In this document: positions 2,253 to 63,155 of the stretch, one piece after another
Numbering within the stretch: the stretch's first letter is position 1
How the letters are laid out: each line of letters opens with the position of its first letter
NCBI GenBank assembly: GCA_938040995.1
Contig: CALHZT010000202.1
Location: forward strand, 7,133 to 71,132
Reading direction: 5' to 3'
Length of the DNA stretch: 64,000 nt
From: an uncultured Pirellulaceae bacterium
GTDB lineage: Bacteria; Planctomycetota; Planctomycetia; Pirellulales; Pirellulaceae
Notes under the pieces: model-generated
The model's database searches: none
Told to the model about the DNA's origin: nothing
What the model saw: the letters and a program-made list of their open reading frames with translations, nothing else
Translations under genes and position numbers: made by a program

Positions 2253-2371
2253 CAAGTTTCAGTCCGTGGCAGTCAGCAATCCGTTAGGGGCACGATTTGC
2301 CCAGTAATAATAGGCTAGAGGGGGCAGGGCGGCAGGGCAATACCAGATGAGTTGCGATGCCTCTCAGTCGA

Positions 2372-8627: not shown

Positions 8628-8912
8628 ATCGGCCAATTTTCAGGCGACTACGGGTTGTGGATTTGTGTCTTGGTGGACGTTTCGGTCGAATATGGTTGGC
8701 GATCCGCTTGAAGCGTTACTTAGTTATAGTATCGCCTGTCTTTGGAGCGGCCACGTAAATTAGAGCAATTTTTGCTGTTATTTTAGGGTATTCTGGTTGG
8801 GGGTTATGAATCGGCACCGAGGTCGGTTTGACACTTGCGAATCCGCAGTGGTCGATGTACGATGTGAGCGGATTGAACGAATTTGATCGAAGGCTGAGCG
8901 AAGGGAATTGGT

Positions 8913-24612: not shown

Positions 24613-24715
24613 TGGATTGCATTAACCTTGTAGATGTCCGGCTTGTTCGACTGCCGTCGTCTGGCATGGCCCGAACGCCAAAAATCGACTGAGCGCAAAA
24701 ACAAAGGGAAACGTG

Positions 24716-30745: not shown

Positions 30746-30787
30746 GCGTTTGTCCCGTCGATGGTTTTGGCGCAACTGTCGTTGATT

Positions 30788-45920: not shown

Positions 45921-46122
45921 TTCCTGATACTAGGATACCTGTGCTGAGCCGATTATAACTTGTTGAGTGATTCCTTGTGAGCAGCGTTGTCCAGTCGGGA
46001 GCGACCGGCTTCGCCTGTGTAATGTTGGAGCGTTCGCATACGGTTTGTTCAGAATGGACTGACTGTTGACGTTTTGCAGATTGAATTTCGTTTCGTGCGA
46101 CCAGAGAAACTCGGGGACATTG

Positions 46123-48550: not shown

Positions 48551-50419
48551 CTATGGTTTTGATTCGGTCGATGGCTTTTTATTCGTAGCCTGGGTACCGG
48601 GGGCAACGAAACGGCGAAATAAGTGAAAGCACGTCTTGGCTGCTTTCGTTTTTAGCGGACTGAAGACTTTACGATAGCGACCGAAGTGAGTCAGCGCCCC
48701 ACCAAATTTCGCCTTGAATTCGCGCGGCCCATATTCTTTATCGGGCCAACCGGCACCACCGAAGTCATACCATCGCATACCGTTTTCACTGCACCATCGG
48801 ATCTCGTCCCATGTCAGGCAATCAAACGGAACAATTCCTTTCTGCCGTAACGACCCGCCGTACCACGCAAGAAACCTGTTCTTGAACACCAGGGCGATAC
48901 CAGCCGCCACATCTTTTCCTTCGTGGCTGGCGATTCGGACTTGCACAATTTCATCACCGAAATGGTCCAGCGCCGCGTGAAAAAGCTTGATGTCGGCCAA
49001 CGGCACCCGCGAGCGGCCGTAGCTTGCCTCGAGGAACGGGTACATTCGCTCGATGCCATTGTGGGTGGTATCGAGAGCTACCGCGACGCCGCGTTTGAAC
49101 GATTGGCGAATTTTCTTGCGTGCCGATTTCCCCATGCGACTCATCAAGGTGTCCACGTCAGCCGTCGTATCAATCACGTAATTGAGATAGTCTTTGAACT
49201 CGTAGCCATTTGCTTCGAGTACCCGGCGCTCACCAGAGTCCGATAGCATCGGACGGATCTCGGCAAACAGCGTTCGACGAGCCAGATTTTGATCGTGCTG
49301 CTGCACGATGGATTCAAGCCCTCTCACCCCCAGATCGGTGTCGTCGAATATCGGTTCGGCATGCCAGACGCTCCGTGACGTCAAACTACTGGCAAGTCCA
49401 GATATCGTCTCGATGCGTGTTGTGACCATCATGGCAACAATTCGGTCGTCTTCCGAAACGGCAACAAGGCCCGAGGGCTCATGTTTGGCCACGTCGGCCA
49501 TCGATTGAATGAACTCCTGCGTGTGACAAACACTGCCCTTCGGATGGTCCATGACGTAGCGATTCCACTCGTCTGCCGGAACTTGCTCATGAGTCAGAAC
49601 TCTGGTTACCGTTTCTCCTGAAGTTCCTGCGACTTTTTTGCCACGTAAGGCGCCGACCGTCAGGCTGCGCGAGTTTCGGTCGGCAACCCGTCGTTTGAAT
49701 TCGCGGCGCTCTATCGAGTTGGGATACGTGTAGTAGCTGCCAAGTCCGCCGTTGTCGATCGAAACCGGTTGCGTGCTTCCCTGAAGTACGTCGATTAGCA
49801 TGTCGGCTGACATTGTGTACAGTTCTTCGGCGAGTTCATCGACGGACTTTGAATAGTCAAGCGGAACTGCGCGCTGCGCGAGAATGTTTCCGAAGTCGAT
49901 TCGAGTCGTCATTTCGTGAATGGTCATACCTGTTTCCGACTCACCGTGATACATCGCCCAGAAAATGGGAGTAGGGCCACGATACGCGGGTAGCAGGGAG
50001 GAATGCATGTTGATGAACTGCACGCCGGGTGTAGAGAGCAACGGTTGCTTGAGAATATTCTTGCAGTTGCAGACCACAAGAGTATCCAGTTCCGAAATCA
50101 TCGACCGGTGAATCGGATCGTTGATGCTGGTGATCACCGAATGCGGCAGATTGGTGGCTCGCGCATGCGCATAAGCCGTTTTGGATGATTCGGCGCCGCC
50201 CAACATCTCGCCGACTCGGTCCAGTAGCAGCCCTGCGACTTTGGCATTCATTTCGCGGATGCCGAACTTGGCAATGGTCTGCAGTGGGTTGCTTCGGCTT
50301 TCCGCAATCGTGTCATAGAAATAGGCGTGGACCAGTTCGATCCCGTCTTCATTGCAAAGACGTTTAAAGACCGGGTAGCTCGTAGTGGCGGTTATGTTGG
50401 TAAGTAAAGCAACTTTCAT
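48551..50419 (-). CDS. fusion protein: N-terminal formyltransferase (Fmt/ArnA-N type) plus C-terminal FemAB/GNAT-fold acyltransferase
   Basis: The N-terminal part has VVCNCKNILKQPLL...FINMHSSLLPAYRGPTPIFWAMYHGESETGMTIHEMTTRIDFGNIL (formyl_trans_N, His/Asp). The C-terminal part has GKSARKKIRQSFKRG, ALVFKNRFLAWYGGS and WCSENGMRWYDFGGAG...REFKAKFGG, a FemAB/Acetyltransf_6 pattern. Its ATG overlaps the NRPS-PKS stop codon as ATGA (50416-50419). Confidence 0.8.
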   Translation of the reverse strand: MKVALLTNITATTSYPVFKRLCNEDGIELVHAYFYDTIAESRSNPLQTIAKFGIREMNAKVAGLLLDRVGEMLGGAESSKTAYAHARATNLPHSVITSINDPIHRSMISELDTLVVCNCKNILKQPLLSTPGVQFINMHSSLLPAYRGPTPIFWAMYHGESETGMTIHEMTTRIDFGNILAQRAVPLDYSKSVDELAEELYTMSADMLIDVLQGSTQPVSIDNGGLGSYYTYPNSIERREFKRRVADRNSRSLTVGALRGKKVAGTSGETVTRVLTHEQVPADEWNRYVMDHPKGSVCHTQEFIQSMADVAKHEPSGLVAVSEDDRIVAMMVTTRIETISGLASSLTSRSVWHAEPIFDDTDLGVRGLESIVQQHDQNLARRTLFAEIRPMLSDSGERRVLEANGYEFKDYLNYVIDTTADVDTLMSRMGKSARKKIRQSFKRGVAVALDTTHNGIERMYPFLEASYGRSRVPLADIKLFHAALDHFGDEIVQVRIASHEGKDVAAGIALVFKNRFLAWYGGSLRQKGIVPFDCLTWDEIRWCSENGMRWYDFGGAGWPDKEYGPREFKAKFGGALTHFGRYRKVFSPLKTKAAKTCFHLFRRFVAPGTQATNKKPSTESKP

Positions 50420-53400
50420 TGTAACTTTGCAAGCGCCTTGTCGAGACAGGTGGTGAACTTGATGGTAAGCGCGTCCACAAAGGGAGGTACCATCATCCCG
50501 GCTGGATAAACGGGCAGGCGATGCAGCTCGGTTTCACAGGTCGTCGGGAATTCCTGATCCTGATAACGCAGGTAGTCGCGTTGGGGACGGAAAAGAATGA
50601 TCTTACCGTCGTAGGTGGTGGCTTGATAGTGCTCCGCAATCTCATCGTGCCGTCGCCAGATTTCTGCGGCGGTCTGCTCCGCGTCACCAGAAGGACTAGC
50701 TACGCTCCAACGACTGATCCAGGTCTTGCGGCGGCGTTTGAGGACCTCCCATTTTTCCCTCAGGAAAGAAAGTTTGTCGACGTATTTCAATTTAAGAAAA
50801 TTGCGAAAGTGGTAGTCGACTCGCTGCAGGTTGTAGAGGAGCTTGACCCAAAATGATTTGCTGGCAGCCTGGGAGGTGGACCAATTGTACGTTTCGATAC
50901 AAATCAGGACCGTTTCTTCACCCGCCGCTTTCAGTTGTTGTGCGACTTCAAGCGCGATCGTCCCGCCCATGCAATATCCCGTCAACAGGTAGGGGCCTTG
51001 GGGCTGCACGGCGAGGATATCGTTGACGTAACGTTTCGCGAGCCCTTCGATACTTTCTACCGGTTCGCCAAAGAGCGCCGGGGATTGCAGACCATAGACC
51101 GAATAAGCATCTTCGATGCGCGCGGCGAGTTCCCGAAAGATCAAAGCGTAGCCGTCAGCAGCGTGCATACAGAATACGCGAGGCTTGTTGGTACTGACGG
51201 CAATCTCAACGAGCGTCGAGCGATGAGCTGGAGTCGCTGGAGTCGCTGCCGCCACCGGCTCTGTGGCCTGGTCCAGGCCAAGGTGTTCAGCAAGTCGTGC
51301 AGGTGTGGAGAATTCGACCATCGCTGCGAAGGGTAGCCTCTGGCCAAACTGCTTCTCCAGCTCGGCGAGAAAACGGACGGCGCTGAGTGAGTCACCACCC
51401 AGCTCAAAATAATTGTCATCCGCTGCGACTTTTGGGATTGAGAGCAGGCGCTCCCACATCCGCGCGATCTGCCGCTCACCCGATAATGCATCGTTGGAAC
51501 CAGCGGCGGAATCTGACACCGCCTGGCTATCCGACTCTCTGGCTTGCCGCGCGGCTTCGAGAAATGGAGATTTGGCATGAATGTCGAGTTCGACGCGGCG
51601 AGCCAGATCGCGCGTCGAAATCAGGACGGTGGAGGCGTCACACGCCAGCACACGCTGGAACATCGCGGCTCCCTGATCCGGCGTGAATGAATCGAAGGGA
51701 TCGAACAGTCGTTGGCCGGTTCCAAACGATTCGGCAAAATCGCGTGCAACTTCGGCTGCCATCCCAATCGACTGCCATTCGTCCGAGGCGATTGCGACGG
51801 CGTGGATGCCTCGCTCGCGTTGTCGAGCCGCGAAGGCTTCGAGGAAACTGTTGGCAGCCACGTAACTTAACTGGCCGTAGCGATTGTGATACAGCACGTT
51901 CGAAATGGAAGAGTACAGCACCCAGAATTCGACGGGATGATCGGCAAGTGCGGCTTCGAGCGCGTAGCTGCCTTTGATTTTCGATTGCAGCATCCGTTCG
52001 GTTGCGTCCTTGTCACGCAACTGGATCGCTCCTGCCGTATCGGCAACGCCTGCGGCGTGAACAACGCCGTGTATCGGACCGAATTGTTGCGTGCCGGTTG
52101 CGATCGCATCACGCAGTTGCTGTTCGTCGGAAACGTCGGCGGGCAGTAGAACGACGCTTCCCGGAAGTGATTCCAGCTGCTGCAATCGTTGAATTTTCTG
52201 CGACGTGCCATCGTCTGCGTCGTGCTGGTCGAGCCAGTCTTTCCATTCGTCGCGGGGCGGTAGTGGACTGCGGCCAAGCAAGATCACATTGGCGTTTACA
52301 GTTTCGAGCAGTTTGCGGGCAAGCGAAAAACCGATGCCTCCCAGACCGCCAGTGACGAGGTAAGTGCCGCCTTGCTTTAAACGCGCTGTGTTTTCGTACG
52401 ATGCGTCGAGCGGCAGTCGCCGGACAGAAGGGGCACAGCGTTGGCCATCGCGATAGGCGATCCAGACATCATCAATAGCAAGCTGCAATTCATCGCTGGC
52501 TTGTTCCCAGGCGGTCGTTGCGATGTCGACCAGTCGGCATTCAATTTGAGGGTACTCGAGCGGGATGACTTTGGCGGCGCCCAGCAAGGATGCACGGTTC
52601 GCGTGAATTGCGGCGCTGTTCGTAGTACCGTCTTTAGGCGGAATGGTGGTCGAATTGGTAGCGGCAGTGGCAGCTGGATTCCGGCTAAAGCCGGTGCTGC
52701 AAACTGAGTCAGCATGCCCGTGGGTGAATATCGAGAGCGCGATTGGGGTGTCGATGTGGAAACGCCCCAGCGATTGAGCCAGGAATTGTAGCGAGTAAAT
52801 TCCCAGCGACTGTTGCCGTTGTAATTCGCCTTGCCAACCCGCATTCGACGTGTCGATTGACTGATCGTCGTTCCATTGCCAGAGATGAACGATTCTGGTC
52901 GGGAACCTGCCTGCGTCGGCCATGGTTTGTAATAGTTGATCGAAATGTTTGGGGGCATTCGGATCAATCGTGAACTCAGCTTCACTCACCTGATGGAATG
53001 ATTCGGCAGCACGGACCAGCGTAACTTGGCTGCCGCTCATATCGCTCCGCAGTTTCTTGACCAGCGACTGTGAGGCGGCATCTTCACCAGCGAAGACCAG
53101 CCAGACAACGTCTGTCGCTTGAGTCGATTCGGGTGGATTTCCAGACAGAGGTTCCCAGTCAGGAACGTAGAACCAGTCGTCAAACGGTTCGCGCCGCTGT
53201 GGTAACGCGCTGGCGATTTCAGCATTCATCAGCGCTGGTGTGGCTACGTCAACTGTTGTCGTTGTTGCAGTGGCAACCGCAGGGGAGCGAGTGCCTGGTG
53301 GTGCGTCCTCAACCCAGAATCGCTTTCTCTGAAATGGATAAGTCGGTAGCGGAACGCAGCGTGGGCGGGCGTCCGGGTTCTGCGGCCAATCGACGGCAGC

Positions 53401-56400
53401 GCCATTGGCCCAGGCTTCGGCAAGAGATTTCCACCAAACGTCTACGTCATTCGACTCCTGTTTGGGGTGCCGTGTGGACCGAATCGTATGCCCAGCCAGA
53501 TCGGGTTGCAGGCGGACGAGACTGGAGAGGGTTTGACCAGGGCCGACTTCAATGAACACGTTGGTTTTTCGATCGACGAGCGCTGCTGCTGCTGACGAAA
53601 AGTTCACGGTTTGGCGGATGTTTCGCGCCCAATATTCGGGCTGTGTCATCTCACCATTGGAAACCCATGTTCCTGTCACGGTCGAAACAATGGGTAGTTG
53701 CGGCTCGCGTCGATCTCGCCTGGCAACCTCTGCCTGGAAGGTCGCCATGGCTGGCTCCATCATCGCAGAGTGGAAAGCGTGTGACGTCCTGAGCGCGCGA
53801 AACGCGACTTCTTCCGAATCGAGTTGTTCCGCGAACGCGTCCACCGCAGCGGTCGGACCGGAGACCACGCAGTGCTGCGGGCTGTTGACGACCGCCATCG
53901 ACAGCCCAGACGGCAGCCGCTCTCTCACGCTGGATTCTGGCAAAGTCACGGCGAGCATTTTGCCTCGGGGAAGATCCTGTAGCAGCCGTCCTCGGAGCAC
54001 GGCCAGCTCGATCGCTGTCTTCGGCGTAAAGACTCCCGCAATACAGGCCGCTGCCAGTTCACCGATGCTGTGTCCGACCACATAATCTGGCTGCACTCCC
54101 TGTCGCATCCACAGTCGAGCCAACGCCAATTCAATCACGACGATCGCCGGTTGCGTCAACCACGTCTCCGACAATTGCGTTGCTGCGGTCGAATCCTGTT
54201 CGAATATCGCCTGTCGTAAATCTACCGAGAGCGTTGGCTGAGCGTACTGGCAGAACTCGTCGACGTCAGCGCGAAATGACTTGTCGGCGTCGTAGAGATC
54301 CCGCGTCATACCAACGTACTGGGCGCCCTGACCGGGGAACAGAAACGCTACGCTCGTTTTGCGCGCGGCTGTAACGTTGATCGACTGGACGATGTTATCG
54401 GAGTGCGAGCCGGGGTCAGCGAGTGCGGCCTGCAACTCTTCACGCGTCCTGCCCATGACGACTCGACGAGCCTGAAAGGCGCGGCGACCGTGCTTCAACG
54501 TGCGCTCGATGGAGGCTAAAGACGTCTCCGGTTGCTGATGCAGGTACTCGCCAAGATGTCTGGTTGCGATATCAAGGGCCGACTCATTGCGAGCTGATAG
54601 CAAAAGCAGATGAGGCGCACCGGTTTCCGATGCAGCAGGCGTTGAACAATTTGAATGGGAATCGTCATCCTGGGTAGATGGTGGCTCGGGCGAAGTCGCC
54701 GAGGGCGGTTCTTCGAGGATCGCATGGGCGTTCGTACCGCCGATGCCGAACGCGCTGACTCCAGCGATTCGCCGCTGTCCAGGTTGTCGTTGCGGCCACT
54801 CGGTCAACTCCGTCGCAACGCGAAACGGGCTGTCAGCAAAATTGGCGTTGCGATTCGGAGTGCGAAAGTGCAGCGATGGCGGAATCGTTCCATCGCGGAC
54901 AGCACAGGCGGCTTTGATGAGTCCAACGATACCAGCGGCTACGTCCTGATGCCCAACGTTTGTTTTCACCGAACCGATCCAGCAGTAATTGCTGTCGTCG
55001 GTTGACGCTCGGAACGCTTTGGTCAGTGCGTCGACCTCGACGGGATCCCCGACGAATGTGCCCGTGCCGTGCGCTTCGATATAACCGACCTGATCAGCCG
55101 TAATACCACTTTGCTCGTGGGCCATCTGCACGACTTGACACTGGCCGTCGGTCGAGGGCGCCGAATAGCCCATCTTGGACCCGCCATCGTTGTTGATCGC
55201 CACCGTCTTGATTACGGCATGAATCGTGTCCCCGTCGGCTTTGGCATCGGACAATCGCTTGAGCACGACGGCTCCCACGCCTTCACCAAACACGGTTCCC
55301 TGGGCGTCATCATCGAACGTCCGCACGCGTCCATCGGGCGAGAGCACCATGCCCTCCTGTGAGAGATAGCCGTTGCGATACTCGAGATTCACACTCACGC
55401 CGCCTGCCAAAGCGAGCGAGCATTGCCCCAGCTGTAGCGACTGGCAAGCCAACTGGACGGCGACCAGTGAAGTCGAACAGCCCGTCTGTACGGTCATGCT
55501 CGGACCGGTCAGGTTCAGTCGAAAGGACACTCGAGTTGAGAGAAAGTCTTTTTCGTTGCTGATCAGTGTTTGAAAAGCCGTCGCCGGGTCGGGTGGACCC
55601 AACGCTCGGTCAATCAGTGCCCGATAGTCATTCGGGCGGGCGCCAGCGAACACGCCAATCTCTCCGTGGTCGCTGTCAGGGTCGTAACCAGCATGTTCCA
55701 GTGCCGACCACGCACACTCCAGAAAGATTCGGTGCTGCGGATCGGTAATCTTGGCCTCGTGTGGACTGATACCGAAGAATTCGGCATCGAATTTATCCAC
55801 GTCGGTGAGCGACGAGGTGACGGGCACGTAATTTGGATCGTTCACCTGTGCGGCAGGCACGCCCGCAGCGAGAAGTTCTTCGGGAGTCAGCCGACGAATC
55901 GACTCGACACCGTTCTTGAGGTTTTCCCAGAACTCATCGACGGACTCCGCGCCCGGCACGCGCGCCGCCATGCCCACAATCGCGATCGGTTCCAACTGGA
56001 CTCGCGAGTTTGTTTTTGCTGCCTTCGATCCGGAACCCTTCGTTTTCTGGTCCTCGCTATCAAGATAAGTCGCCAACTCGGCAATCGTCGGGTGCTGGAA
56101 TAGATCCACAATCGCGAACTTGCTCGATGGCAGCACCTTGTTCAATCGCAATTCCATTTCGGCGAGCATTAGCGATTGCCCACCGAGTTCGAAAAACGAG
56201 TGATCGACACTGACTCGATCCAGCTTCAGCAACTGACACCAGACCGTGGCAATCGTCTGTTCGGTATCGGTCGTTGGTGCCTCATACGGTCGATCTGATG
56301 CGGGCGGCGCGGGTTCGGGTAGCGCCTTGGCATCCAGCTTGCCATTCGGCGTGAGTGGGATCTCGTCGATAGGTACAAAAAACTGCGGGACCATATATTC

Positions 56401-57933
56401 GGGCAACGACTCTGAGACGGCGGAGCGTAACTGAGTCGAGTCGATCTGTTGATCCTTGCTCGCGACGAGGTAAGCCACCAGTCGCTGCACTCCCGAATCT
56501 GTCGTTTGCACGACGGCAATCGCCTGCCCGACCGTTGGTTGTTCCTGCAGACGGGCTTCGATCTCTCCCAGCTCGATCCGAAAACCACGTAGCTGAACTT
56601 GTCGGTCGCAGCGGCCAAGATATTCAAGCTCACCATCTGCACGACGACGGCCGAGATCGCCGGTCCGGTAAAGCGTTCCGCCGCCGCTACCATTGCCGTT
56701 GCCATTGTAAAACGGATCGGGAAAAAATCGCTCCGCCGTCAAAGTCGGACGCCGCAAGTAGCCCTGCGAAACACCGGCTCCGCCGACATAGATCTCGCCC
56801 TCGATGCCAACGTCCACGGGCTTTCGGTCTTCGTCGAGGACATGCAGCGTCAAGTCGGGAATTGGTTGGCCAATCAGACTGCTCCGCTCGCCCTCGACAT
56901 CCGCCCGCATTAACCGGCGGTAAGTCACATGCACAGTCGTCTCGGTAATGCCGTACATATTGATCAGCTGTGGGGCGTTGTCGCCGTGTCGCTTGACCCA
57001 GCCGCGAAGGCTACTAAACTCCAGCGCCTCGCCACCAAAAATTACCCGCCTCAGCGAAAGTGGCAGTTCTTCGCTTAGCCGTTCATCAGCCGCCATAAGT
57101 TGGCGAAAGGCAGACGGCGTCTGATTCAAAATCGTGACGTTCTCTTCGGAAAGCAGTCGATAAACCTCGTTGGGTGACCGGCTGGTCGTGTAAGGCACAA
57201 CCACTAGCCGTCCCCCATAGAGCAGCGCTCCCCAAATTTCCCAAACCGAAAAATCAAACGCGTAAGAATGGAAAAGTGTCCACACATCCTTCGCGTCGAA
57301 ATGGAACCAGTGTTCTGTTTTCGTAAACAGTCGCAGCACGTTGAAATGCGAGACCTGCACGCCTTTGGGTTTGCCCGTTGAACCGGACGTGTAAATAACG
57401 TAGGCCGTTCGTTTGCTGCCTTGCTGATTGCTGCAGTTGTCTGCCAAAGGCCAGGGCTCGATCGAGGAATCGTCCCACCTCGGTTCGGCTTGAAGCATAT
57501 CCATCCTGATTAGCGGACAAGCACTTGTGGGAATCGCTGATGCCGTTGAGGCGTCGGTCACAATCGCCGTCGCCTGACAGTCTTCCAGAATCATTTCCAG
57601 ACGCGACTGGGGGTATTCCGGATCGAGTGGAATGTAGGCGGCACCGACCTTGAGTATCCCGATCAGCCCGGCGAGAAGGTTCTCATCGCGAGGCAGCGCC
57701 AACGCCACCATGTCGCCGACTTTGACACCTTGTTCCACGAGCTGCTGTGCGACCTTGTTGGCCCGATGATTCAGCTGGCCATAAGTGATCGAACGTCCAT
57801 CGCAGGTGATCGAAATCGATTCCGGTGAATGTCGCACTTGCTGCTCGAACGCTTGAGACAGGCAGCCGTTGGAGCCAATGATGGCGCTCAATTTCGGTTG
57901 GGGGTCACCCGATTGAGGATTGTGATTCAGCAT
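50416..57933 (-). CDS. hybrid NRPS-PKS, one polypeptide: A-PCP-KS-AT-(linker)-KR-ACP-TE
   Basis: The ORF is 2505 aa. Each domain was identified from its core motifs (see the domain features). There is no condensation domain, so the A-PCP is a loading module. Confidence 0.95.
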   Translation of the reverse strand: MLNHNPQSGDPQPKLSAIIGSNGCLSQAFEQQVRHSPESISITCDGRSITYGQLNHRANKVAQQLVEQGVKVGDMVALALPRDENLLAGLIGILKVGAAYIPLDPEYPQSRLEMILEDCQATAIVTDASTASAIPTSACPLIRMDMLQAEPRWDDSSIEPWPLADNCSNQQGSKRTAYVIYTSGSTGKPKGVQVSHFNVLRLFTKTEHWFHFDAKDVWTLFHSYAFDFSVWEIWGALLYGGRLVVVPYTTSRSPNEVYRLLSEENVTILNQTPSAFRQLMAADERLSEELPLSLRRVIFGGEALEFSSLRGWVKRHGDNAPQLINMYGITETTVHVTYRRLMRADVEGERSSLIGQPIPDLTLHVLDEDRKPVDVGIEGEIYVGGAGVSQGYLRRPTLTAERFFPDPFYNGNGNGSGGGTLYRTGDLGRRRADGELEYLGRCDRQVQLRGFRIELGEIEARLQEQPTVGQAIAVVQTTDSGVQRLVAYLVASKDQQIDSTQLRSAVSESLPEYMVPQFFVPIDEIPLTPNGKLDAKALPEPAPPASDRPYEAPTTDTEQTIATVWCQLLKLDRVSVDHSFFELGGQSLMLAEMELRLNKVLPSSKFAIVDLFQHPTIAELATYLDSEDQKTKGSGSKAAKTNSRVQLEPIAIVGMAARVPGAESVDEFWENLKNGVESIRRLTPEELLAAGVPAAQVNDPNYVPVTSSLTDVDKFDAEFFGISPHEAKITDPQHRIFLECAWSALEHAGYDPDSDHGEIGVFAGARPNDYRALIDRALGPPDPATAFQTLISNEKDFLSTRVSFRLNLTGPSMTVQTGCSTSLVAVQLACQSLQLGQCSLALAGGVSVNLEYRNGYLSQEGMVLSPDGRVRTFDDDAQGTVFGEGVGAVVLKRLSDAKADGDTIHAVIKTVAINNDGGSKMGYSAPSTDGQCQVVQMAHEQSGITADQVGYIEAHGTGTFVGDPVEVDALTKAFRASTDDSNYCWIGSVKTNVGHQDVAAGIVGLIKAACAVRDGTIPPSLHFRTPNRNANFADSPFRVATELTEWPQRQPGQRRIAGVSAFGIGGTNAHAILEEPPSATSPEPPSTQDDDSHSNCSTPAASETGAPHLLLLSARNESALDIATRHLGEYLHQQPETSLASIERTLKHGRRAFQARRVVMGRTREELQAALADPGSHSDNIVQSINVTAARKTSVAFLFPGQGAQYVGMTRDLYDADKSFRADVDEFCQYAQPTLSVDLRQAIFEQDSTAATQLSETWLTQPAIVVIELALARLWMRQGVQPDYVVGHSIGELAAACIAGVFTPKTAIELAVLRGRLLQDLPRGKMLAVTLPESSVRERLPSGLSMAVVNSPQHCVVSGPTAAVDAFAEQLDSEEVAFRALRTSHAFHSAMMEPAMATFQAEVARRDRREPQLPIVSTVTGTWVSNGEMTQPEYWARNIRQTVNFSSAAAALVDRKTNVFIEVGPGQTLSSLVRLQPDLAGHTIRSTRHPKQESNDVDVWWKSLAEAWANGAAVDWPQNPDARPRCVPLPTYPFQRKRFWVEDAPPGTRSPAVATATTTTVDVATPALMNAEIASALPQRREPFDDWFYVPDWEPLSGNPPESTQATDVVWLVFAGEDAASQSLVKKLRSDMSGSQVTLVRAAESFHQVSEAEFTIDPNAPKHFDQLLQTMADAGRFPTRIVHLWQWNDDQSIDTSNAGWQGELQRQQSLGIYSLQFLAQSLGRFHIDTPIALSIFTHGHADSVCSTGFSRNPAATAATNSTTIPPKDGTTNSAAIHANRASLLGAAKVIPLEYPQIECRLVDIATTAWEQASDELQLAIDDVWIAYRDGQRCAPSVRRLPLDASYENTARLKQGGTYLVTGGLGGIGFSLARKLLETVNANVILLGRSPLPPRDEWKDWLDQHDADDGTSQKIQRLQQLESLPGSVVLLPADVSDEQQLRDAIATGTQQFGPIHGVVHAAGVADTAGAIQLRDKDATERMLQSKIKGSYALEAALADHPVEFWVLYSSISNVLYHNRYGQLSYVAANSFLEAFAARQRERGIHAVAIASDEWQSIGMAAEVARDFAESFGTGQRLFDPFDSFTPDQGAAMFQRVLACDASTVLISTRDLARRVELDIHAKSPFLEAARQARESDSQAVSDSAAGSNDALSGERQIARMWERLLSIPKVAADDNYFELGGDSLSAVRFLAELEKQFGQRLPFAAMVEFSTPARLAEHLGLDQATEPVAAATPATPAHRSTLVEIAVSTNKPRVFCMHAADGYALIFRELAARIEDAYSVYGLQSPALFGEPVESIEGLAKRYVNDILAVQPQGPYLLTGYCMGGTIALEVAQQLKAAGEETVLICIETYNWSTSQAASKSFWVKLLYNLQRVDYHFRNFLKLKYVDKLSFLREKWEVLKRRRKTWISRWSVASPSGDAEQTAAEIWRRHDEIAEHYQATTYDGKIILFRPQRDYLRYQDQEFPTTCETELHRLPVYPAGMMVPPFVDALTIKFTTCLDKALAKLQ
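50419..51186 (-). other. C-terminal thioesterase-like alpha/beta domain with Cys in the nucleophile elbow
   Basis: PRVFCMHAADG is followed by LLTGYCMGGTIALEVA. The Cys2321 codon tgc is the reverse complement of gca at 50971-50973, checked base by base. Confidence 0.75.
51268..51486 (-). other. acyl carrier protein domain (Ser2182 in YFELGGDSLSAV)
   Basis: The GGDS phosphopantetheine attachment motif is present. Confidence 0.85.
51754..52371 (-). other. ketoreductase catalytic subdomain
   Basis: GTYLVTGGLGGIGFSLARKL is the NADPH-binding motif. The downstream YSSISNV...YVAAN supplies the Ser/Tyr/Asn catalytic residues. The about 270 aa before it look like the KR structural subdomain. Confidence 0.8.
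52618..52705 (+). repeat. Repeat family R2, full double-hairpin copy embedded in frame in the NRPS-PKS coding sequence
   Basis: The plus strand reads ttcgtagtaccgtctttaggcggaa...attccggctaaagccggtgctgcaaac. This matches 11401-11470 in both hairpin modules, with a longer spacer. It is translated on the minus strand as CSTGFSRNPAATAATNSTTIPPKDGTTNS. Confidence 0.75.
53494..54354 (-). other. acyltransferase domain (Ser1289), malonyl-type motif
   Basis: Motifs are FLFPGQGAQYVGM, GHSIGELAAA and SHAFHS. HAFH is the motif associated with malonyl-CoA specificity. Confidence 0.85.
54709..55992 (-). other. ketosynthase domain (Cys819, His955, His995)
   Basis: Motifs are EPIAIVGMAARVPGA, TVQTGCSTSLVAV, EAHGTGTFVGDPVE, NVGHQDVAAG and GGTNAHAILEE. 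Confidence 0.9.
56050..56268 (-). other. peptidyl carrier protein domain (Ser587 in FFELGGQSLML)
   Basis: The GGxS phosphopantetheine attachment motif is present. Confidence 0.85.
56314..57876 (-). other. NRPS adenylation domain (aa about 20-540)
   Basis: Core motifs are LKVGAAYIPLD, YVIYTSGSTGKPKGV, FDFSVWE, NMYGITETT, YRTGDL, GRCDRQVQLRGFRIELGEIE and LTPNGKLD. Confidence 0.9.
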
Positions 57934-58367
57934 TTTGTTATTTAGCCGTCCACCAACAACTTCAAGTAGAAAAACACCAGTCTAAAACGGGCTGGGATAG
58001 CGCGTCGGAACCTTGCGAATAAAAGAAGGATGGAGATATCGAGATTGCTTTTGATACAACCTCCATAATAATTCAACCTCGCGGCAAGTGCGTCGAGATT
58101 CGGCGATCGGCTGCCGAAAAGCGAGCCATCCGCGAACATTCAGGGGGTTTGCGAAGAGTACGCTTTATCGGGCTTCAGATAGCCATGAATCAGTCGTTTC
58201 CCAACCGGACCATTTCGGCTGGATGTTTCCACCGGGGAGCGACCAAGCCGCTGACACCCGGTATCCATCAAGCTCACGCTGACAGATGGTCGTGGAAATC
58301 ACGCACAATCGATATTTCTGGCGGAAGTCGAATTTCCATCCGCTTCGTGGAATGAAAAGCTGTCATC

Positions 58368-58592
58368 CTAAGCTTAGGATCGTTCGATCAATGAGTGTCG
58401 AATCTCCGTTCATGCGACTCGATTGACGGCCTATGGCCGTCTTCCCCGCGAACGCGGGGACCCACTCGAAGCGTACTAACGCTCAATATCTTTCCCTGCA
58501 TCAAAAAGCCAATCCGATTTAATGGATTCCCGCCTGTGCGGGAAAGACGGAGGAAGATCAGGCAGTGATTTCTCGAACGTTCCCAAGTTTTA
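58368..58592 (+). mobile_element. MITE-like repeat family R1, copy 3 (uninterrupted)
   Basis: The element runs ctaagcttaggatcgttcgatcaatgagtgtcgaatctccgttcatg...ccgtcttccccgcgaacgcgggg...cccgcctgtgcgggaaagacgg...tctcgaacg. It sits in the 750-bp gap between the GT4 gene and the NRPS-PKS gene. Confidence 0.8.
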
Positions 58593-58683
58593 AGGCGAGC
58601 GGCGGATAAAAATTTACCTGCTTGCGTTCTTGAGCCGCTACGGCCACCGATGTCTTATCGGTAAATTCTTACTCGCCTTTCGC

Positions 58684-59904
58684 CTAAACGAGCTGAGATG
58701 ACGTCGACTGGACTTTGCGATAAGTCGCGATTAGAGATTCTTTCTGATGCTTCCATGCCAATTCGGACTCGATTCGACGGCGTCCCTTTTCGCCCATCGA
58801 CTGACGTAGATCTGGCTCATCCATCAGTTTTTGCAGGCACTCAGCAAAGTGCAGTACGTCACCGGGCTTTGCGTAGAGCGACGCATCGCCTGCGCTGTAG
58901 CGGTGTTCTGGCATGTCATAACCCACGACTGGTTTGGACATGGCCATGTATTCCATCGTTTTGATCATGGTGCACGAGGCGTTATACGAATTGACCGGAT
59001 CGGGAGTCACCATGATGTCGCACGAAGCGATGTGTGAATACAACGCATTGCCTTGTTGATATCCCACAAACGCCATCTTGTCGTCGAGCTGCAACTCCAC
59101 CGACAGATCTTTGAGGCTTTGCAGTGCCGGGCCGTCTCCAATGATTAGGCCAAAGAAGTCGTCGCGGTTCAGGTCTCTGGTCAGTCGTCCCATCGCCTGA
59201 AGAAAACTGTCGACGCCATCCTGAAAACCAATACACCCCATGTACCCGAGAATGATCTTGTCCATCGCCCGATACTCGGGCAGGGGAGTCGCCCCCACCA
59301 TCTGCTGGAACCTTGGGCCGTTGCGCACCACATTGGTGCGAGCCGGATCGACATGACACCGGGAAATGTCACTCGCGCGTTGTGACTCGTTGGTTTGAAT
59401 CATCTGGTCGGCCAGCCGACAGGACCGACGTTCAAACCACTTCAATATTCGCACCAGCAGTGAATCTTCACTTGCCTGGGACTGGGCCTGATACAACTCT
59501 GGTGAAAGGTCGTGGTGATCCATCACGTAGCGGACACCAAACAGCTTGAACCAGGCTCCGATCGTGACATACATATCAGGCGGTGTATGCACGTGCAACG
59601 CATCGAACCCGTACCGGAGGAACAGGTAATTGGCAATGAAAAATGCCATCGTCAGACTGTATCCGTATTCGACCACATAACCGATCAGTCCCGACCACTC
59701 TGGCGGCGCAGGGTAACGATACACGGTGACGCCGTCCATCACTTCACGGCGCTTCGACGTGTACGCATCCCTGGGACACACGACGCTGACCGTATGACCT
59801 GCTTCGGCTAATGCCGTCGCTTCGTTGGCAACTCGCGTGTCGTCTGGATAACCGCCATTTTCGAGGAGCATCAGAATGCGGCACGGTTTGGTAAGTTCTG
59901 TCAT
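58684..59904 (-). CDS. GT4-family (GT-B fold) glycosyltransferase
   Basis: ATG 59904 gives MTELTKPCRILMLLENGGYPDDTRVANEATALAEAGHTVSVV. The C-terminal part is Glycos_transf_1-like (FVGYQ...IMVTPD...KTMEYMAMSKPVVGYD). The longer listed ORF would overlap the upstream gene. Confidence 0.8.
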   Translation of the reverse strand: MTELTKPCRILMLLENGGYPDDTRVANEATALAEAGHTVSVVCPRDAYTSKRREVMDGVTVYRYPAPPEWSGLIGYVVEYGYSLTMAFFIANYLFLRYGFDALHVHTPPDMYVTIGAWFKLFGVRYVMDHHDLSPELYQAQSQASEDSLLVRILKWFERRSCRLADQMIQTNESQRASDISRCHVDPARTNVVRNGPRFQQMVGATPLPEYRAMDKIILGYMGCIGFQDGVDSFLQAMGRLTRDLNRDDFFGLIIGDGPALQSLKDLSVELQLDDKMAFVGYQQGNALYSHIASCDIMVTPDPVNSYNASCTMIKTMEYMAMSKPVVGYDMPEHRYSAGDASLYAKPGDVLHFAECLQKLMDEPDLRQSMGEKGRRRIESELAWKHQKESLIATYRKVQSTSSQLV

Positions 59905-60109
59905 CTCGCTTTTGTCTTGCCGCCATAAAGAATAGTAAATCGACTGGATGCCGGGAAATTTCATCCCCGTTTTGATGAGCAGCGTCATACCATCAAAAGA
60001 ATTCGCTGCGTGCGCACCGACGGGGTGCAACCACACACGCCAACGACTCGTTATTGCCCTAATACAGTTTACGAACAAGGCAACGACTTCCCTACCAACA
60101 AACCCACAA

Positions 60110-61132
60110 TTATTCTTCCTTCGCGTAATCGGAATTCGACTGATCATTGCTCTGTTCGTGCCCCGTGAGTGAGCGACACCAAGTCGCCATTTCGTGTGGT
60201 AACACGTGCCATGGAGAGGTTTCGTCGCGAAGATATCGCAAAAAGTCACCGTACACCTTCAGTCGGGAAGGGGTGTCAAGATAATCGGGGTGAGTCACCA
60301 TTAATGCCATGCCGTGCAATCTACGGATCGTCGCCAACTTTTGCCGCCAGTAATCGTCCGTGGTCTGTCGCAATGTGACCAGCAGCGTGTGATCTTGCGG
60401 CAACGTGTATGGAAGTTCGACAAATTTTCCGAACACGAATGGCCACAAACTGCCGACGCCGCCAGGCATGGCCTGGAATGGATCGCTGTCAAAGCACGAT
60501 GCGTCATAGTCAATATTCAACTGCTGCAACCAGTGCATATTGCGGTGTACCATCGGTGCGCGAAATCCGGTAGCACCCAGCTCATCGATCGCTCGATTGA
60601 TGCCGGGTACTCGCGAATTGAATATCTTTTCGCTCAGGAACAGCTTGCCGTCATGGTTGTAACCATGAACGCCAACTTCGTGCCCGCGTCGTTTGAGATC
60701 GCGGACCAGCCCCGGGTCTGTCTTGTACTTGTATGGGATGAAGTACCAGCAGGACCGAAAACCAAGCTCTTCTTCGAGCTGGGCAATCGGCTCGATAATC
60801 TTCAGGCCTTCTTTGGTCTCAACATCATGTGAAAGGACGAGTGAAAATTCGGCGGAGTTTGGCCAAATCGAGTTCAGTGTGACATCTTCCTTGTCCATGA
60901 ACTCGATCAGCCGTTGGGGCATGAACTGGTCAAGGCTCGTGTCCGCACTCTGGTTGCGCATCCGCTGCAGCAGCTGCCGGACAAAGATTGGTAGTAGGCC
61001 GCGGATCTGGTAAAAGGCGCGGAACGTGGGCGAAAGCCTCGCCGATTCGATGTCTTCGTGAAGCGATTGCTCGAGATGGTTAACCAGCTCGCCTTTCAGA
61101 GGGTAGCTGGCCTGTAGGGATTGGCTATTCAT
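60110..61132 (-). CDS. polysaccharide deacetylase-like (NodB/CE4-type) protein
   Basis: LVLSHDVETKEGL supplies the Asp motif. RRGHEVGVHGYNHDG supplies the His-x-x-x-x-His metal motif. The start was set at ATG 61132, 22 nt after the AsnB-like stop codon. Confidence 0.65.
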   Translation of the reverse strand: MNSQSLQASYPLKGELVNHLEQSLHEDIESARLSPTFRAFYQIRGLLPIFVRQLLQRMRNQSADTSLDQFMPQRLIEFMDKEDVTLNSIWPNSAEFSLVLSHDVETKEGLKIIEPIAQLEEELGFRSCWYFIPYKYKTDPGLVRDLKRRGHEVGVHGYNHDGKLFLSEKIFNSRVPGINRAIDELGATGFRAPMVHRNMHWLQQLNIDYDASCFDSDPFQAMPGGVGSLWPFVFGKFVELPYTLPQDHTLLVTLRQTTDDYWRQKLATIRRLHGMALMVTHPDYLDTPSRLKVYGDFLRYLRDETSPWHVLPHEMATWCRSLTGHEQSNDQSNSDYAKEE

Positions 61133-61154
61133 GGATGTCAGGTCTGTGGTGATG

Positions 61155-63155
61155 TCAGGTCTGTGGGGTATTGGCCGCGTCTGTTTGTAGGTTGTTTTTC
61201 CTTGATGAAGTAAAGTCCTGTCCATTATCCAGGCTCGGTCCCTCAGCCATGGCATTGGTGGAAGAAGAGGCGTCGACAAATCGACGCATCCACATTTCGA
61301 AACTCATCAGGCCCCAAAGCTCGGTAGCAAAATCTGCATAGCCGTTTTCGTGCAGCTTCATCATTTTTTCTACACGTTCAAAGCGAAAGAGCCCGCGTGA
61401 TTCGATTGACGACTTCGTCAATAAATCGCGCATCATCGGTTGCGCCTCTTTTCGCAGCCATTTTTCGATCGGAATGGGGAAGCCCTGTTTGGGTCGGTTG
61501 ATAATGCTCTCAGGAATCAGTCGCCCAGCGGCCTGCTTGAGCAGGTACTTGCGACTGCGCCCGCGCAGTTTCATGTTTGCAGGCAGGGAAGCCGCGAATT
61601 CCACGAGCTTGTGATCGAGAAGCGGCACGCGTGCTTCGAGGGAATTGGCCATGGTCAGTTTGTCGCCACGCAAGAGCAGGTAATCGACCAGCCAGAGTTT
61701 CGAGTCGACGTAGAGCATGCGGTTCAGTGGATCGCGGGCATCGGTGCGATCGAGGTGCGACGCAAACGCCGCGGCAGCTCCCGCCCGTGCATGATGCATG
61801 TTGCTCGCGAGCAGTTCCGCCTTGGCATCGTCGCTGAACATCGGGAACCAGTTGGCGAAGCGAGTCGCCTCGTCACCGATCGTCAACGCGTTAAGGGCAA
61901 TTTTGGCTCGCCGCATGCCCGGCAACATACGAGCCAGTCCGCAAGTTGGTTTTCGCAGCACGCCCTGGAGCGGCCAGAATTTCGGCGAATGCTGCTCGCC
62001 TTCGTAGCGGGCGTATCCAGCGAACAATTCGTCACCGCCCTCACCGGTCAGGACCATCTTCACGTGTTGCCTGGCCAGTTTTGCGACCATATGCGTGGCG
62101 ACGGTGGCTTGATCGGCAATCGGCTGATCAAGATGGAAGAGGACTTTTTCGGCGTGCTCCAAAAAGTCACTAGGACCGATCAGGAACGAATGGAATTCGC
62201 AGCCGAACCGGTCGGCGATCACGCGTGCGTAAGGCAGCTCGTCCATGGACTGGCCGTCGGACGACTGATGATCAAAGCCCACGGTGAATGTCTTTACGGG
62301 TTGGTTCATGGCTTCGGCCATCAGCGCAACGATCGTGCTGCTGTCGATGCCTCCGCTGAGGAAGGCGCCGAAGGGCACGTCGGCTCGCAGCCGCAACTGG
62401 ACCGACTCCCGCAAGATCGACAGGAGTTCGTCGGTGGCGTCCTCTTCCGACATCGAGGCACGAGTCGGCTCGTAGGATATATCCCAGTAACGCTCGATCT
62501 TCAGGCTGTTCTTTCCGCCGCCCGCGCGGACACGAATGGAATGGCCGGGAGGTAACGACTGAATATCCGCAAACATGGTGCGCGGAGCCGGAACGTATTT
62601 GAGCGAGAGATAGTCGCTGAGCGCGAGTTGGTCCAGGCGTGCATCGACGCGGGGATGGCGGAGCAGTGATTTGACTTCCGAGCCGAAGATAAGCGTGTCG
62701 CCGCGCACCGCGTAATAGAGCGGCTTGATGCCCATGCGGTCGCGGACAATGAATAGCTCGCGATCATGATGGTCCCAGATGGCAAAGGCGAACATGCCAC
62801 GCAGCTCATCAACGCAAGCCGGACCCATCTCTTCGTAGAGGTGAATGATGACTTCGGTGTCGCTCTGTGTGCGGAATTGATGACCGCGTTCGATCAGTTC
62901 TTTTCGCAGTTCCCGGTAGTTGTAGATTTCACCGTTAAAGACGATGCCGTAGCGTCCGCTCTCGTCGTAGATCGGCTGTTGGCCGTCAGCAAGGTCGATG
63001 ATACTCAAGCGTCGCATGCCCATCGCCAGCGGGCCGTCCACAAGTTCACCCCATTCATCGGGACCACGGTGGATGATCGAATCGAGCATCGGCCGCAGCA
63101 CCGAAGGATCGGTGACGGATTCGGTCAGTTCGAGATATCCAGCGATTCCACACAT
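61155..63155 (-). CDS. asnB: asparagine synthase (glutamine-hydrolysing) family amidotransferase
   Basis: MCGIAGY provides the N-terminal Cys2 nucleophile. The GATase-II motifs follow. FLSGGIDSS is the PP-loop of the synthetase domain. Confidence 0.9.
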   Translation of the reverse strand: MCGIAGYLELTESVTDPSVLRPMLDSIIHRGPDEWGELVDGPLAMGMRRLSIIDLADGQQPIYDESGRYGIVFNGEIYNYRELRKELIERGHQFRTQSDTEVIIHLYEEMGPACVDELRGMFAFAIWDHHDRELFIVRDRMGIKPLYYAVRGDTLIFGSEVKSLLRHPRVDARLDQLALSDYLSLKYVPAPRTMFADIQSLPPGHSIRVRAGGGKNSLKIERYWDISYEPTRASMSEEDATDELLSILRESVQLRLRADVPFGAFLSGGIDSSTIVALMAEAMNQPVKTFTVGFDHQSSDGQSMDELPYARVIADRFGCEFHSFLIGPSDFLEHAEKVLFHLDQPIADQATVATHMVAKLARQHVKMVLTGEGGDELFAGYARYEGEQHSPKFWPLQGVLRKPTCGLARMLPGMRRAKIALNALTIGDEATRFANWFPMFSDDAKAELLASNMHHARAGAAAAFASHLDRTDARDPLNRMLYVDSKLWLVDYLLLRGDKLTMANSLEARVPLLDHKLVEFAASLPANMKLRGRSRKYLLKQAAGRLIPESIINRPKQGFPIPIEKWLRKEAQPMMRDLLTKSSIESRGLFRFERVEKMMKLHENGYADFATELWGLMSFEMWMRRFVDASSSTNAMAEGPSLDNGQDFTSSRKNNLQTDAANTPQT

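Follow-up and report, generated by a model that had tools for sequence, protein, structure and literature searches.

A cysteine-type thioesterase domain without the canonical histidine at the end of a hybrid NRPS-PKS of an uncultured Pirellulaceae bacterium

Thioesterase (TE) domains decide how products made by non-ribosomal peptide synthetases (NRPS) and polyketide synthases (PKS) leave the assembly line. A domain encoded by an uncultured Pirellulaceae bacterium raises the question of how a chain can be released when the nucleophile is a cysteine and the histidine base is missing. It lies at the C-terminus of a hybrid NRPS-PKS in a 64,000-nucleotide stretch of contig CALHZT010000202.1 (assembly GCA_938040995.1), referred to here as the window. 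A sequence-only reading of the window had taken it for a TE with a Cys nucleophile, had confidently located neither the catalytic His nor the catalytic Asp, and had proposed strained-ring release as known from ObiF and SulM, with transfer to a sugar or polymer acceptor as the alternative; as a whole this interpretation is partly supported. Judged from its sequence and an AlphaFold model, the domain is a type-I-thioesterase-fold off-loading domain with Cys at the nucleophile position, it belongs to a family in which the His is replaced by Pro, and its product may well be handed to a sugar rather than released with water.

Positions 50419-51186 of the minus strand translate to ...GPYLLTGYCMGGTIALEV..., and the minus-strand DNA at the elbow of the TE reads ggatat tgc atgggcggg; the motif GYCMGG and the tgc codon of its cysteine, Cys2321 in the numbering of the full open reading frame (ORF), are thus as first read. 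In single-sequence and profile searches of the PDB, Cys2321 aligns with two known residues, the nucleophilic Ser in GYSLGG of EntF and the Cys in GGWCFGG of AB3403. In the AlphaFold model of the TE, built from an 18-sequence alignment (pLDDT 91.4, pTM 0.89), this Cys is TE position 90 and lies between strand 84-89 and helix 91-105, that is, in the nucleophile elbow, where the sequence-only reading had put it. Further strands at 110-115, 214-219 and 237-242 and three lid helices at 130-203 complete the model, and both AlphaFold and Foldseek point to an alpha/beta-hydrolase core whose helical lid is an insertion between β6 and β7. The top Foldseek matches are type I TEs only (probability 1.00, TM 0.6-0.68), the neighbours being 7CRN (a skyllamycin-type TE), AB3403, NocB, Pks13, FAS and EntF. 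The match to Pfam Thioesterase (PF00975; 79.6 bits against a cut-off of 26.4) covers only profile positions 2-94 of 226, hence the C-terminal half of the TE is unusual. Two other assignments were considered and rejected. A PhaC-type polyester synthase (G-x-C-x-G-G) resembles the domain in the elbow motif only, as no PhaC model of Pfam or NCBIfam matches it and it lacks the His, and no NCBIfam match from the TE leads to the XrtA-associated 'hydrolase 1/2' families.

In canonical TEs the catalytic His is located in the loop after β8. In the model β8 comprises TE residues 237-242 and is followed by the loop V-Y-P-A-G-M-M-V-P-P-F (243-253) and the last helix; no catalytic His is present after β8, and Pro2477 occupies its column, standing in a MAFFT alignment opposite the His of PGSHLGML in the distant Ser-type relative P0017. 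The failure of the sequence-only reading to locate the His, and its description of the domain as atypical, were therefore correct. The acid, which it had also missed, is present as Glu2347 of CIETYNW, aligned with the Asp of EntF LLDTW and of AB3403 IDT, i.e., in the canonical position after β6 (position I).

Whether this is a peculiarity of one protein was decided by its relatives. A word-indexed search returned only 17 of them, and all that are full-length have GYC[MS]GG. When 1.84 billion cluster representatives were searched exhaustively with a HMMER profile, 113,292 matches were obtained at E < 1e-3, of which the best 150, all at E <= 1e-99, were analysed; a TE-only profile was rebuilt, and every TE domain of these 150 proteins was cut out and aligned with hmmalign. 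The family was defined as the 119 full-length domains of at least 232 bits, each a separate 50%-identity cluster, and the comparison set as the 43 domains of at most 208 bits; the family boundary of 230 bits is a threshold of our own, set in a narrow gap of scores. Within the family the nucleophile is Cys in 119/119 and Ser in 0/119, a result contrary to the free alternation of Ser and Cys among orthologues that would have spoken against a special role of the Cys. The His column holds Pro in 116 of the 119 domains and His in 0%, position I is acidic in 117 (Glu in 78, Asp in 39), and a His anywhere in the post-β8 loop is found in 13 members. The 43 lower-scoring relatives are mixed at the nucleophile (Cys 25, Ser 16, Asp 2), and 35 of them (81%) have His in the His column. 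By these alignments the loss of His is a family trait and not the decay of one domain.

Other residues conserved in the family are Thr2348 (89%), Asn2350 (86%), Lys2394 (97%), Arg2401 (92%), Asp2430 (85%, with Glu in a further 10%) and Tyr2436 (98%); besides the Cys, about ten positions are 85-98% conserved across several phyla. In the best 150 matches the family is represented by at least 119 distinct 50%-identity clusters, and a scan with two strict family motifs across a library holding one genome per species confirmed 207 relatives, distributed among Pirellulaceae, Acidobacteriota, Desulfobacterales, Syntrophales, Entotheonella, Chloroflexota and Rhodothermales. No published description of a TE family with Cys and without His was found in open-access texts, and the source names of ten members are generic ('amino acid adenylation domain-containing protein', 'aspartate racemase'), the latter label looking like a mis-annotation of an NRPS module. 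On these two grounds the family is treated as undescribed, and it is apparently a large one.

The missing His, together with the shortened Pfam match, could also mean that the TE is degenerate, a catalytically dead domain kept for structure or docking, and the sequence-only reading had allowed for inactivity. Such an outcome appears highly improbable in view of the invariant Cys, the roughly ten polar residues that are 85-98% conserved across phyla, and the confidently predicted fold; moreover, hundreds of assembly lines end in this TE, and most of the examined loci have no second TE within 10 kb.

A base might instead have been relocated. The lid motif D-Y-H-F-R-N-F contains His2375 and Asn2378, conserved in 93% and 94% of the family, respectively, and of these His2375 might serve as a substitute base. 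An ordinary hydrolytic TE would result if His2375, or His2257 of the oxyanion-hole motif, acted with Glu2347 to activate water and release the free acid; the conservation of both lid residues and of Glu/Asp2347 (98%) is consistent with this, and the kept acid suggests a surviving partner. Against it, the lid His also occurs in seven Ser/His-type relatives and was thus there before the canonical His disappeared; it is absent from eight family members, among them P0141, in which all three candidate positions are without His, and His2257 is replaced by Pro in the subgroup of aminotransferase-TE proteins. These observations weaken a relocation to the lid, and hydrolysis by a relocated base is regarded as quite unlikely. 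The lid was also considered as a generally conserved acceptor site, which is not supported: the mean frequency of the top residue is 0.35 in the lid against 0.64 in the core, with about ten near-invariant lid positions.

The comparison with characterised enzymes bears directly on the strained-ring hypothesis. ObiF and SulM possess a Cys/His/Asp triad with the His after β8 and the Asp moved to a post-β7 site; position I is Gly in ObiF1, and a Gln-Cys-Asn motif is present in SulM (PMC6668435, PMC11298585), and the criteria given for SulM include a positively charged pocket (PMC11298585). They share with the window TE the Cys nucleophile, in their case with thiol-thioester exchange from the carrier protein, but the remaining features differ. 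Instead of Asp at position II and no acid at position I, the window TE has Glu at position I; Pro2477 stands where the His after β8 is expected, and the elbow is Tyr-Cys-Met, not Gln-Cys-Asn. Members of the family vary at the post-β7 acid site, TE position 222 (D 19, E 17, N 17, Q 15, and others), and the likeness to ObiF1 is a weak match over the N-terminal half only (E = 3e-4). Since the Cys-TEs with described triads keep the His and the window TE does not, β-lactone chemistry of the ObiF/SulM type is not supported by homology. Release as a β-lactone or β-lactam would suit a Cys nucleophile acting on a β-hydroxy acyl substrate, but given these differences, and given that the family is not tied to β-hydroxy substrates, it is rated as very unlikely indeed.

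The sequence-only reading had also called Cys-TEs rare, a view that is outdated, as AB3403, BulbE and the polymyxin TE belong to them as well (PMC11792885). Among solved structures, AB3403 (ABBFA_003403, PDB 4ZXH) matches the family profile best (176 bits, over the peptidyl carrier protein (PCP) and the N-terminal half of the TE) and resembles the window TE in its Cys nucleophile, GGWCFGG, and in the acid after β6, IDT (PMC11298585). Its triad is conventional and includes the His, AB3403 being treated as differing from ObiF and SulM only in the site of the Asp (PMC6668435, PMC11298585), its product and function are uncharacterised, and the alignment with the family does not extend to its lid and C-terminal half, the match ending at profile position 186 of 354. 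The characterised Cys-TEs act mostly with nitrogen nucleophiles, as in SulM, BulbE and the polymyxin TE (PMC11298585, PMC11792885). As proposed for the window TE, a Cys thioester is resolved by such nucleophiles in the latter two, but intramolecularly, by macrocyclisation, and the BulbE model has a His after β8 that is thought to activate the nucleophile (PMC11792885). It was also observed that five proteins of 2243-4515 aa (P0018, P0020, P0022, P0031 and P0062) each contain two Cys-type TEs that keep the His (GYCFGG ... HExIL), one of the two being internal and not terminal.

The best single-sequence match of the window TE is the TE of EntF from enterobactin synthesis (3TEJ/2ROQ/5JA1; E = 1.2e-15), with a common elbow context, GPY.L.GY[S/C].GGT, and the acid in an equal place; it differs in its Ser nucleophile and canonical His and is an oligomerising, cyclising TE. 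A structural neighbour found by Foldseek, the TE of Pks13 (TM ~0.65), transfers mycolate to trehalose and thus off-loads its product onto a sugar instead of water. Its triad, however, is Ser-His-Asp, and its acceptor is an O-nucleophile.

The features of the synthase and of the surrounding genes are collected in Table 1.

Table 1. Features of the TE, the synthase and the adjoining genes (positions in the window)
Feature	Positions	Strand	Basis
AsnB-like glutamine amidotransferase (WbpS-like)	61155..63155	(-)	Pfam Asn_synthase + GATase_7
CE4 polysaccharide-deacetylase-like protein (VimE-like)	60110..61279	(-)	Pfam Polysacc_deac_1, NCBIfam XrtA polysaccharide deacetylase, PDB 3rxz
GT4 glycosyltransferase	58684..60249	(-)	Pfam Glyco_trans_4_4 + Glycos_transf_1; best NCBIfam match, PEP-CTERM/XrtA stp3 family
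Hybrid NRPS-PKS, 2505 aa, A-PCP-KS-AT-KR-ACP-TE	50416..57933 (stop codon included)	(-)	ORF list, translation, Pfam
Adenylation (A) domain	56338..57849	(-)	Pfam AMP-binding aa 29-393 + AMP-binding_C aa 457-532
Peptidyl carrier protein (PCP), Ser in FELGGQS	56062..56265	(-)	Pfam PP-binding, motif
Ketosynthase (KS)	54865..55992	(-)	Pfam ketoacyl-synt aa 648-897, Ketoacyl-synt_C aa 905-1023
Acyltransferase (AT)	53527..54345	(-)	Pfam Acyl_transf_1 aa 1197-1469; HAFH motif
Ketoreductase (KR)	51772..52368	(-)	Pfam KR aa 1856-2054
Acyl carrier protein (ACP), Ser in ELGGDSLS	51280..51471	(-)	Pfam PP-binding aa 2155-2218
TE-fold domain of the Cys/no-His family, aa 2241-2505	50419..51213	(-)	Pfam Thioesterase, AlphaFold, Foldseek, family analysis
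Cys2321 codon TGC, nucleophile in GYCMGG	50971..50973	(-)	Translation, DNA reading, full-ORF numbering
E-T-Y-N-W after β6, Glu2347 in the canonical acid position (position I)	50881..50895	(-)	Alignment with EntF LLDTW
Lid motif D-Y-H-F-R-N-F with His2375 and Asn2378	50797..50817	(-)	Family alignment
Loop V-Y-P-A-G-M-M after β8; Pro2477 codon 50503-50505	50491..50511	(-)	MAFFT, hmmalign, DNA reading
Formyltransferase + FemAB/GNAT (VimA-like) fusion, 622 aa	48551..50419	(-)	Pfam Formyl_trans_N, Acetyltransf_6/FemAB

The Pfam order of domains in the synthase is AMP-binding, PP-binding, KS, AT, KR, PP-binding and Thioesterase (from aa 2252), the TE following the ACP and running to the stop codon; its position directly after a KR-containing module was thus rightly recognised. 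No dehydratase (DH) or enoylreductase (ER) domain was found in the synthase by Pfam. The active-site motifs are intact: TGCSTS, EAHGTGT and NVGHQ in the KS, GHSIGE and HAFH in the AT, GGLGGIG and SYVAAN in the KR, and GGQS and GGDS around the carrier serines. The ten-residue specificity code of the A domain, read by hand against the core motifs from the segments FDFSVWE, ILNQTPS, VIFGGE, NMYGITETTVH and NGKLD, is D-F-W-N-I-G-M-V-H-K, which we take to be the published Stachelhaus code for Thr. HAFH is a signature of malonyl-CoA (rule quoted in PMC11513958), and GHSIGE with HAFH indicates this substrate for the AT, as far as motifs can tell. With a Thr code, a malonyl AT, a KR and neither DH nor ER, the predicted chain delivered to the TE is 4-amino-3,5-dihydroxyhexanoyl-S-ACP; this Thr-derived chain, which we infer, agrees with the β-hydroxy, γ-amino chain expected by the sequence-only reading and adds a δ-hydroxyl.

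The loading module has no condensation (C) domain by Pfam, and the amine of Thr would therefore be free unless modified. It follows that the chain could release itself by cyclisation: the C4 amine would attack the Cys thioester to give the γ-lactam 4-hydroxy-5-(1-hydroxyethyl)pyrrolidin-2-one, or the C5 hydroxyl would give a δ-lactone, in either case a small molecule. A five-membered lactam can close without a general base, in keeping with the missing His, and known Cys-TEs form N-acyl bonds (PMC11298585, PMC11792885). Nevertheless, the operon of the window and the loci of its orthologs are glycan or exopolysaccharide (EPS) clusters, the TE family also follows modules giving chains without a γ-amine, and a translationally coupled formyltransferase, of which a stand-alone copy adjoins the ortholog in locus L009, suggests that the amine is capped. 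Self-cyclisation is accordingly held to be unlikely, though worth weighing.

The gene context favours the alternative named by the sequence-only reading, transfer to a sugar or polymer acceptor. The synthase gene is one of five co-directional minus-strand genes (AsnB-like, CE4, GT4, NRPS-PKS and Fmt-FemAB), and those for the CE4, FemAB-like, AsnB-like and GT4 proteins all lie with it in a single block, 48551-63155. The stop codon of the NRPS-PKS overlaps the start codon of Fmt-FemAB in the sequence ATGA. Between the GT4 gene and the start of the NRPS-PKS there is a 750-nt non-coding gap (57934-58683) without an Rfam match. The true start of the CE4 gene is probably the Met at 61132; its protein has the motifs HDVE and HGYNHDG, and HDVE and HGxNHDG are invariant among homologues. 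The Fmt-FemAB fusion matches the NCBIfam models fmt and pepcterm_femAB, and its formyltransferase half keeps the HSSLLPxxRG motif as HSSLLPAYRG.

A parallel to this gene set is the Wbp/Vim pathway, which makes the 'linking sugar' for the cargo of type IX secretion in Porphyromonas gingivalis and Tannerella forsythia (PMC7468200). There, VimE (CE4) is proposed to remove the N-acetyl group from the sugar, and VimA (FemAB-like, TIGR03019) to transfer Ser or Gly onto the freed amine; that VimA sets Ser versus Gly addition was shown by a vimA swap between the species. Deletion of PGN_1234 showed that the uronamide form depends on WbpS (AsnB-like, eps_aminotran_1), and the C-terminus of the cargo is then amide-bonded to the amine of the amino acid (PMC7468200). 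According to the same authors, an equal gene set is present in PEP-CTERM/exosortase loci (PMC7468200). The window resembles the Wbp/Vim and PEP-CTERM EPS loci in having CE4, FemAB-like, AsnB-like and GT4 genes beside the synthase. It differs in that the Wbp/Vim pathway adds a plain amino acid and works without an NRPS-PKS or TE, whereas the synthase of the window is predicted to make an extended, amine-bearing acyl group.

The association extends to related loci. In the closest Pirellulaceae loci the A-PCP-KS-AT-KR-ACP-TE synthase is preceded by GT4, the GT4 gene lying directly upstream of the orthologous synthase in L001, L008, L010 and L012-L014; the first of these also encodes a polyprenyl glycosylphosphotransferase, a tyrosine autokinase, a NeuD-type sugar acetyltransferase and a PseC/DegT-type sugar aminotransferase. 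When 87 TE loci were searched by tblastn with the window proteins and cassette genes were counted within 10 kb, at least one cassette gene was present in 30 of them, homologues of CE4 and GT4 in 19 each and those of the AsnB-like and FemAB-like proteins in four each; in ten loci the CE4 gene lies 51-300 nt after the TE. A second Pirellulaceae type is found in the complete genome of Pirellulaceae SH449 (L025), with the order flippase-GT2-GT4-GT4-[KS-AT]-[ACP-aminotransferase-TE]-CE4, where the aminotransferase would give an amine-bearing chain. An Acidobacteriota locus (L074) combines GT4, a pepcterm-type FemAB, CE4, an exosortase, a phosphopantetheinyl transferase (PPTase) and a PCP-TE of the family, and has a gene for a class IV aminotransferase between two PCP-TE genes. 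In a reverse test starting from CE4 homologues in metagenomes (80 loci, 46 with enough upstream DNA), GT4 was a neighbour in 23/80 loci and a TE in 2/46. CE4 is thereby rejected as an obligate release partner of the TE; with GT4 as the commoner and the TE as the rarer neighbour, CE4 is part of the glycan pathway, to which assembly lines are added in a subset of organisms.

Several of these loci have features of their own. On the metagenomic contig L003 (10601-17426), which looks Bacteroidota-like from its genes with type IX secretion system (T9SS) tails, a family-type A-PCP-TE is followed by a CE4 homologue and then by several proteins with such tails (Por_Secre_tail). L074 (9707-17347) and L006 (7536-18999) share a recurrent Acidobacteriota-type module, adjoining the exosortase in L074, which consists of a carrier-TE, a class IV aminotransferase, a second PCP-TE, a thiamine pyrophosphate (TPP) enzyme (acetolactate-synthase-like), a P450 and an acyl-CoA ligase; the carrier-TE of the family is a stand-alone PCP-TE in L074 and the end of a C-A-PCP-TE protein in L006. 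In L015 (Candidatus Entotheonella TSY1, KI931755.1) the tblastn matches follow the domain order of the window protein, with no ACP match listed, at 47-70% identity per domain. The phylum is far from the Planctomycetes, and horizontal transfer may lie behind this likeness.

The position of the FemAB-like protein admits a further explanation, a pure relay: the TE would park the chain on Cys2321, and the fused FemAB/GNAT (VimA-like) protein would accept it from this thioester and N-acylate the sugar. Enzymes of the FemAB family normally use aminoacyl-tRNA donors, a habit that speaks against it, as does the presence of FemAB homologues in only four of the 87 TE loci, compared with 19 for CE4. In its favour are the ATGA coupling to the Fmt-FemAB gene and the FemAB-type gene after the TE in L002 (45%-identical), L056, L068 and L069, and in the Wbp/Vim pathway it is VimA that is proposed as aminoacyl transferase (PMC7468200). 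The two halves of the fusion are separate genes in relatives, Fmt occurring alone in L009 (63% identity) and L027 and FemAB alone in L056, a locus of Roseimaritima sediminicola. Taken together, a TE that serves only as a relay for FemAB is considered improbable.

The explanation that is tentatively preferred, being plausible rather than probable, is an off-loading TE with an invariant Cys, an acid after β6 and Pro for His, in which a Cys-thioester relay is released by aminolysis onto an amino sugar; both the thioester relay and the amine (sugar) acceptor are inferred. The A domain would load Thr, the KS and AT would add one malonyl unit, and the KR would reduce the ketone. Cys2321 would then take the chain by energy-neutral thiol-thioester exchange, for which little base catalysis would be needed; that such an exchange is energetically neutral and requires little base has been argued for ObiF (PMC6668435). 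The acyl-S-Cys intermediate would resist hydrolysis, there being no His to activate water or an alcohol, and would give way to a good nucleophile, for which the free amine of an amino sugar is the likeliest candidate. The neighbouring CE4 would expose this amine on a glycan precursor made by the adjoining GT4 and AsnB-like enzymes, and transfer might be direct or proceed via the FemAB-like partner. The formyltransferase may cap the chain's own amine or that of the sugar. In this way a 'linking sugar' of the Wbp/Vim type or an exopolysaccharide unit would receive an unusual amino-acyl substituent from the assembly line.

Several points weigh against aminolysis onto a sugar. The main weakness is that most family members lie outside glycan loci: 57 of the 87 TE loci are free of glycan genes within 10 kb and have the look of ordinary NRPS/PKS clusters, so that sugar transfer cannot be the function of the whole family. 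The cassette proteins score below the NCBIfam cut-offs, with 613.7 against 816.9 for TIGR03108 (eps_aminotran_1), 63.3 against 260 for TIGR03019, 27.2 against 276 for TIGR03006 and 69.4 against 442 for TIGR04063. No sortase or exosortase was seen in the scanned parts of the window; among the relatives, L074 has an exosortase and L003 the proteins with T9SS tails. Furthermore, the FemAB-like protein could itself be the transferase, a non-canonical dyad of lid His2375 and Glu2347 could, on conservation grounds, support hydrolysis, and a free γ-amine on the chain would cyclise readily unaided. The property common to the family is thus probably the Cys relay resolved by a good nucleophile, with a sugar as the acceptor in the window's subgroup only.

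Elsewhere in the window, a plus-strand gene (46066-48513) converging on the end of the cluster encodes an 815-aa protein in which a transglutaminase core (aa 158-250) is fused to an esterase of the polyhydroxybutyrate (PHB)-depolymerase family (aa 515-683). A stand-alone NAD_binding_4 ('male sterility') reductase, thioester/fatty-acyl-reductase-like, is encoded at 1137-2255 (-), 48 kb from the synthase. A regulator with a MerR-type helix-turn-helix (HTH) and a B12-binding domain (CarH-like; 7737-8636, minus strand) adjoins a divergent sigma-70 family gene (8913-9923, plus strand). On the minus strand there are also a 2151-aa ORF without any Pfam match (12859-19314) and a PPDK_N (pyruvate phosphate dikinase-type ATP-binding) protein with an N-terminal EF-hand match (21946-24249). 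Two DUF1501 proteins and one PSCyt2/PSD1 protein are encoded at 24713-26077 (+), 29432-30775 (-) and 30788-33550 (-); these are typical Planctomycete families, in agreement with the closest relatives being Pirellulaceae.

What is at stake is the way in which the products of many assembly lines are released. A His base is used in textbook TE mechanisms and in the Cys-TEs with described triads (ObiF, SulM, AB3403 and BulbE), and the oddity of the window TE is not a single substitution but a conserved trait of a large, uncharacterised TE family; if active, this family implies a release chemistry not yet described. Genome-mining tools label such domains plainly as 'TE', and product predictions for the clusters concerned may be wrong. 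The link with CE4, FemAB, AsnB and GT4 offers a concrete, testable path along which the products of assembly lines could end up on glycans or protein-anchoring sugars. More speculatively, and with little confidence, the Cys/no-His family would form a distinct off-loading class, a non-hydrolysing relay that couples NRPS/PKS products to amines, which here and in the exosortase- and T9SS-linked relatives would yield non-proteinogenic amino-acyl 'linking sugars' whose free amine anchors proteins or decorates exopolysaccharide.

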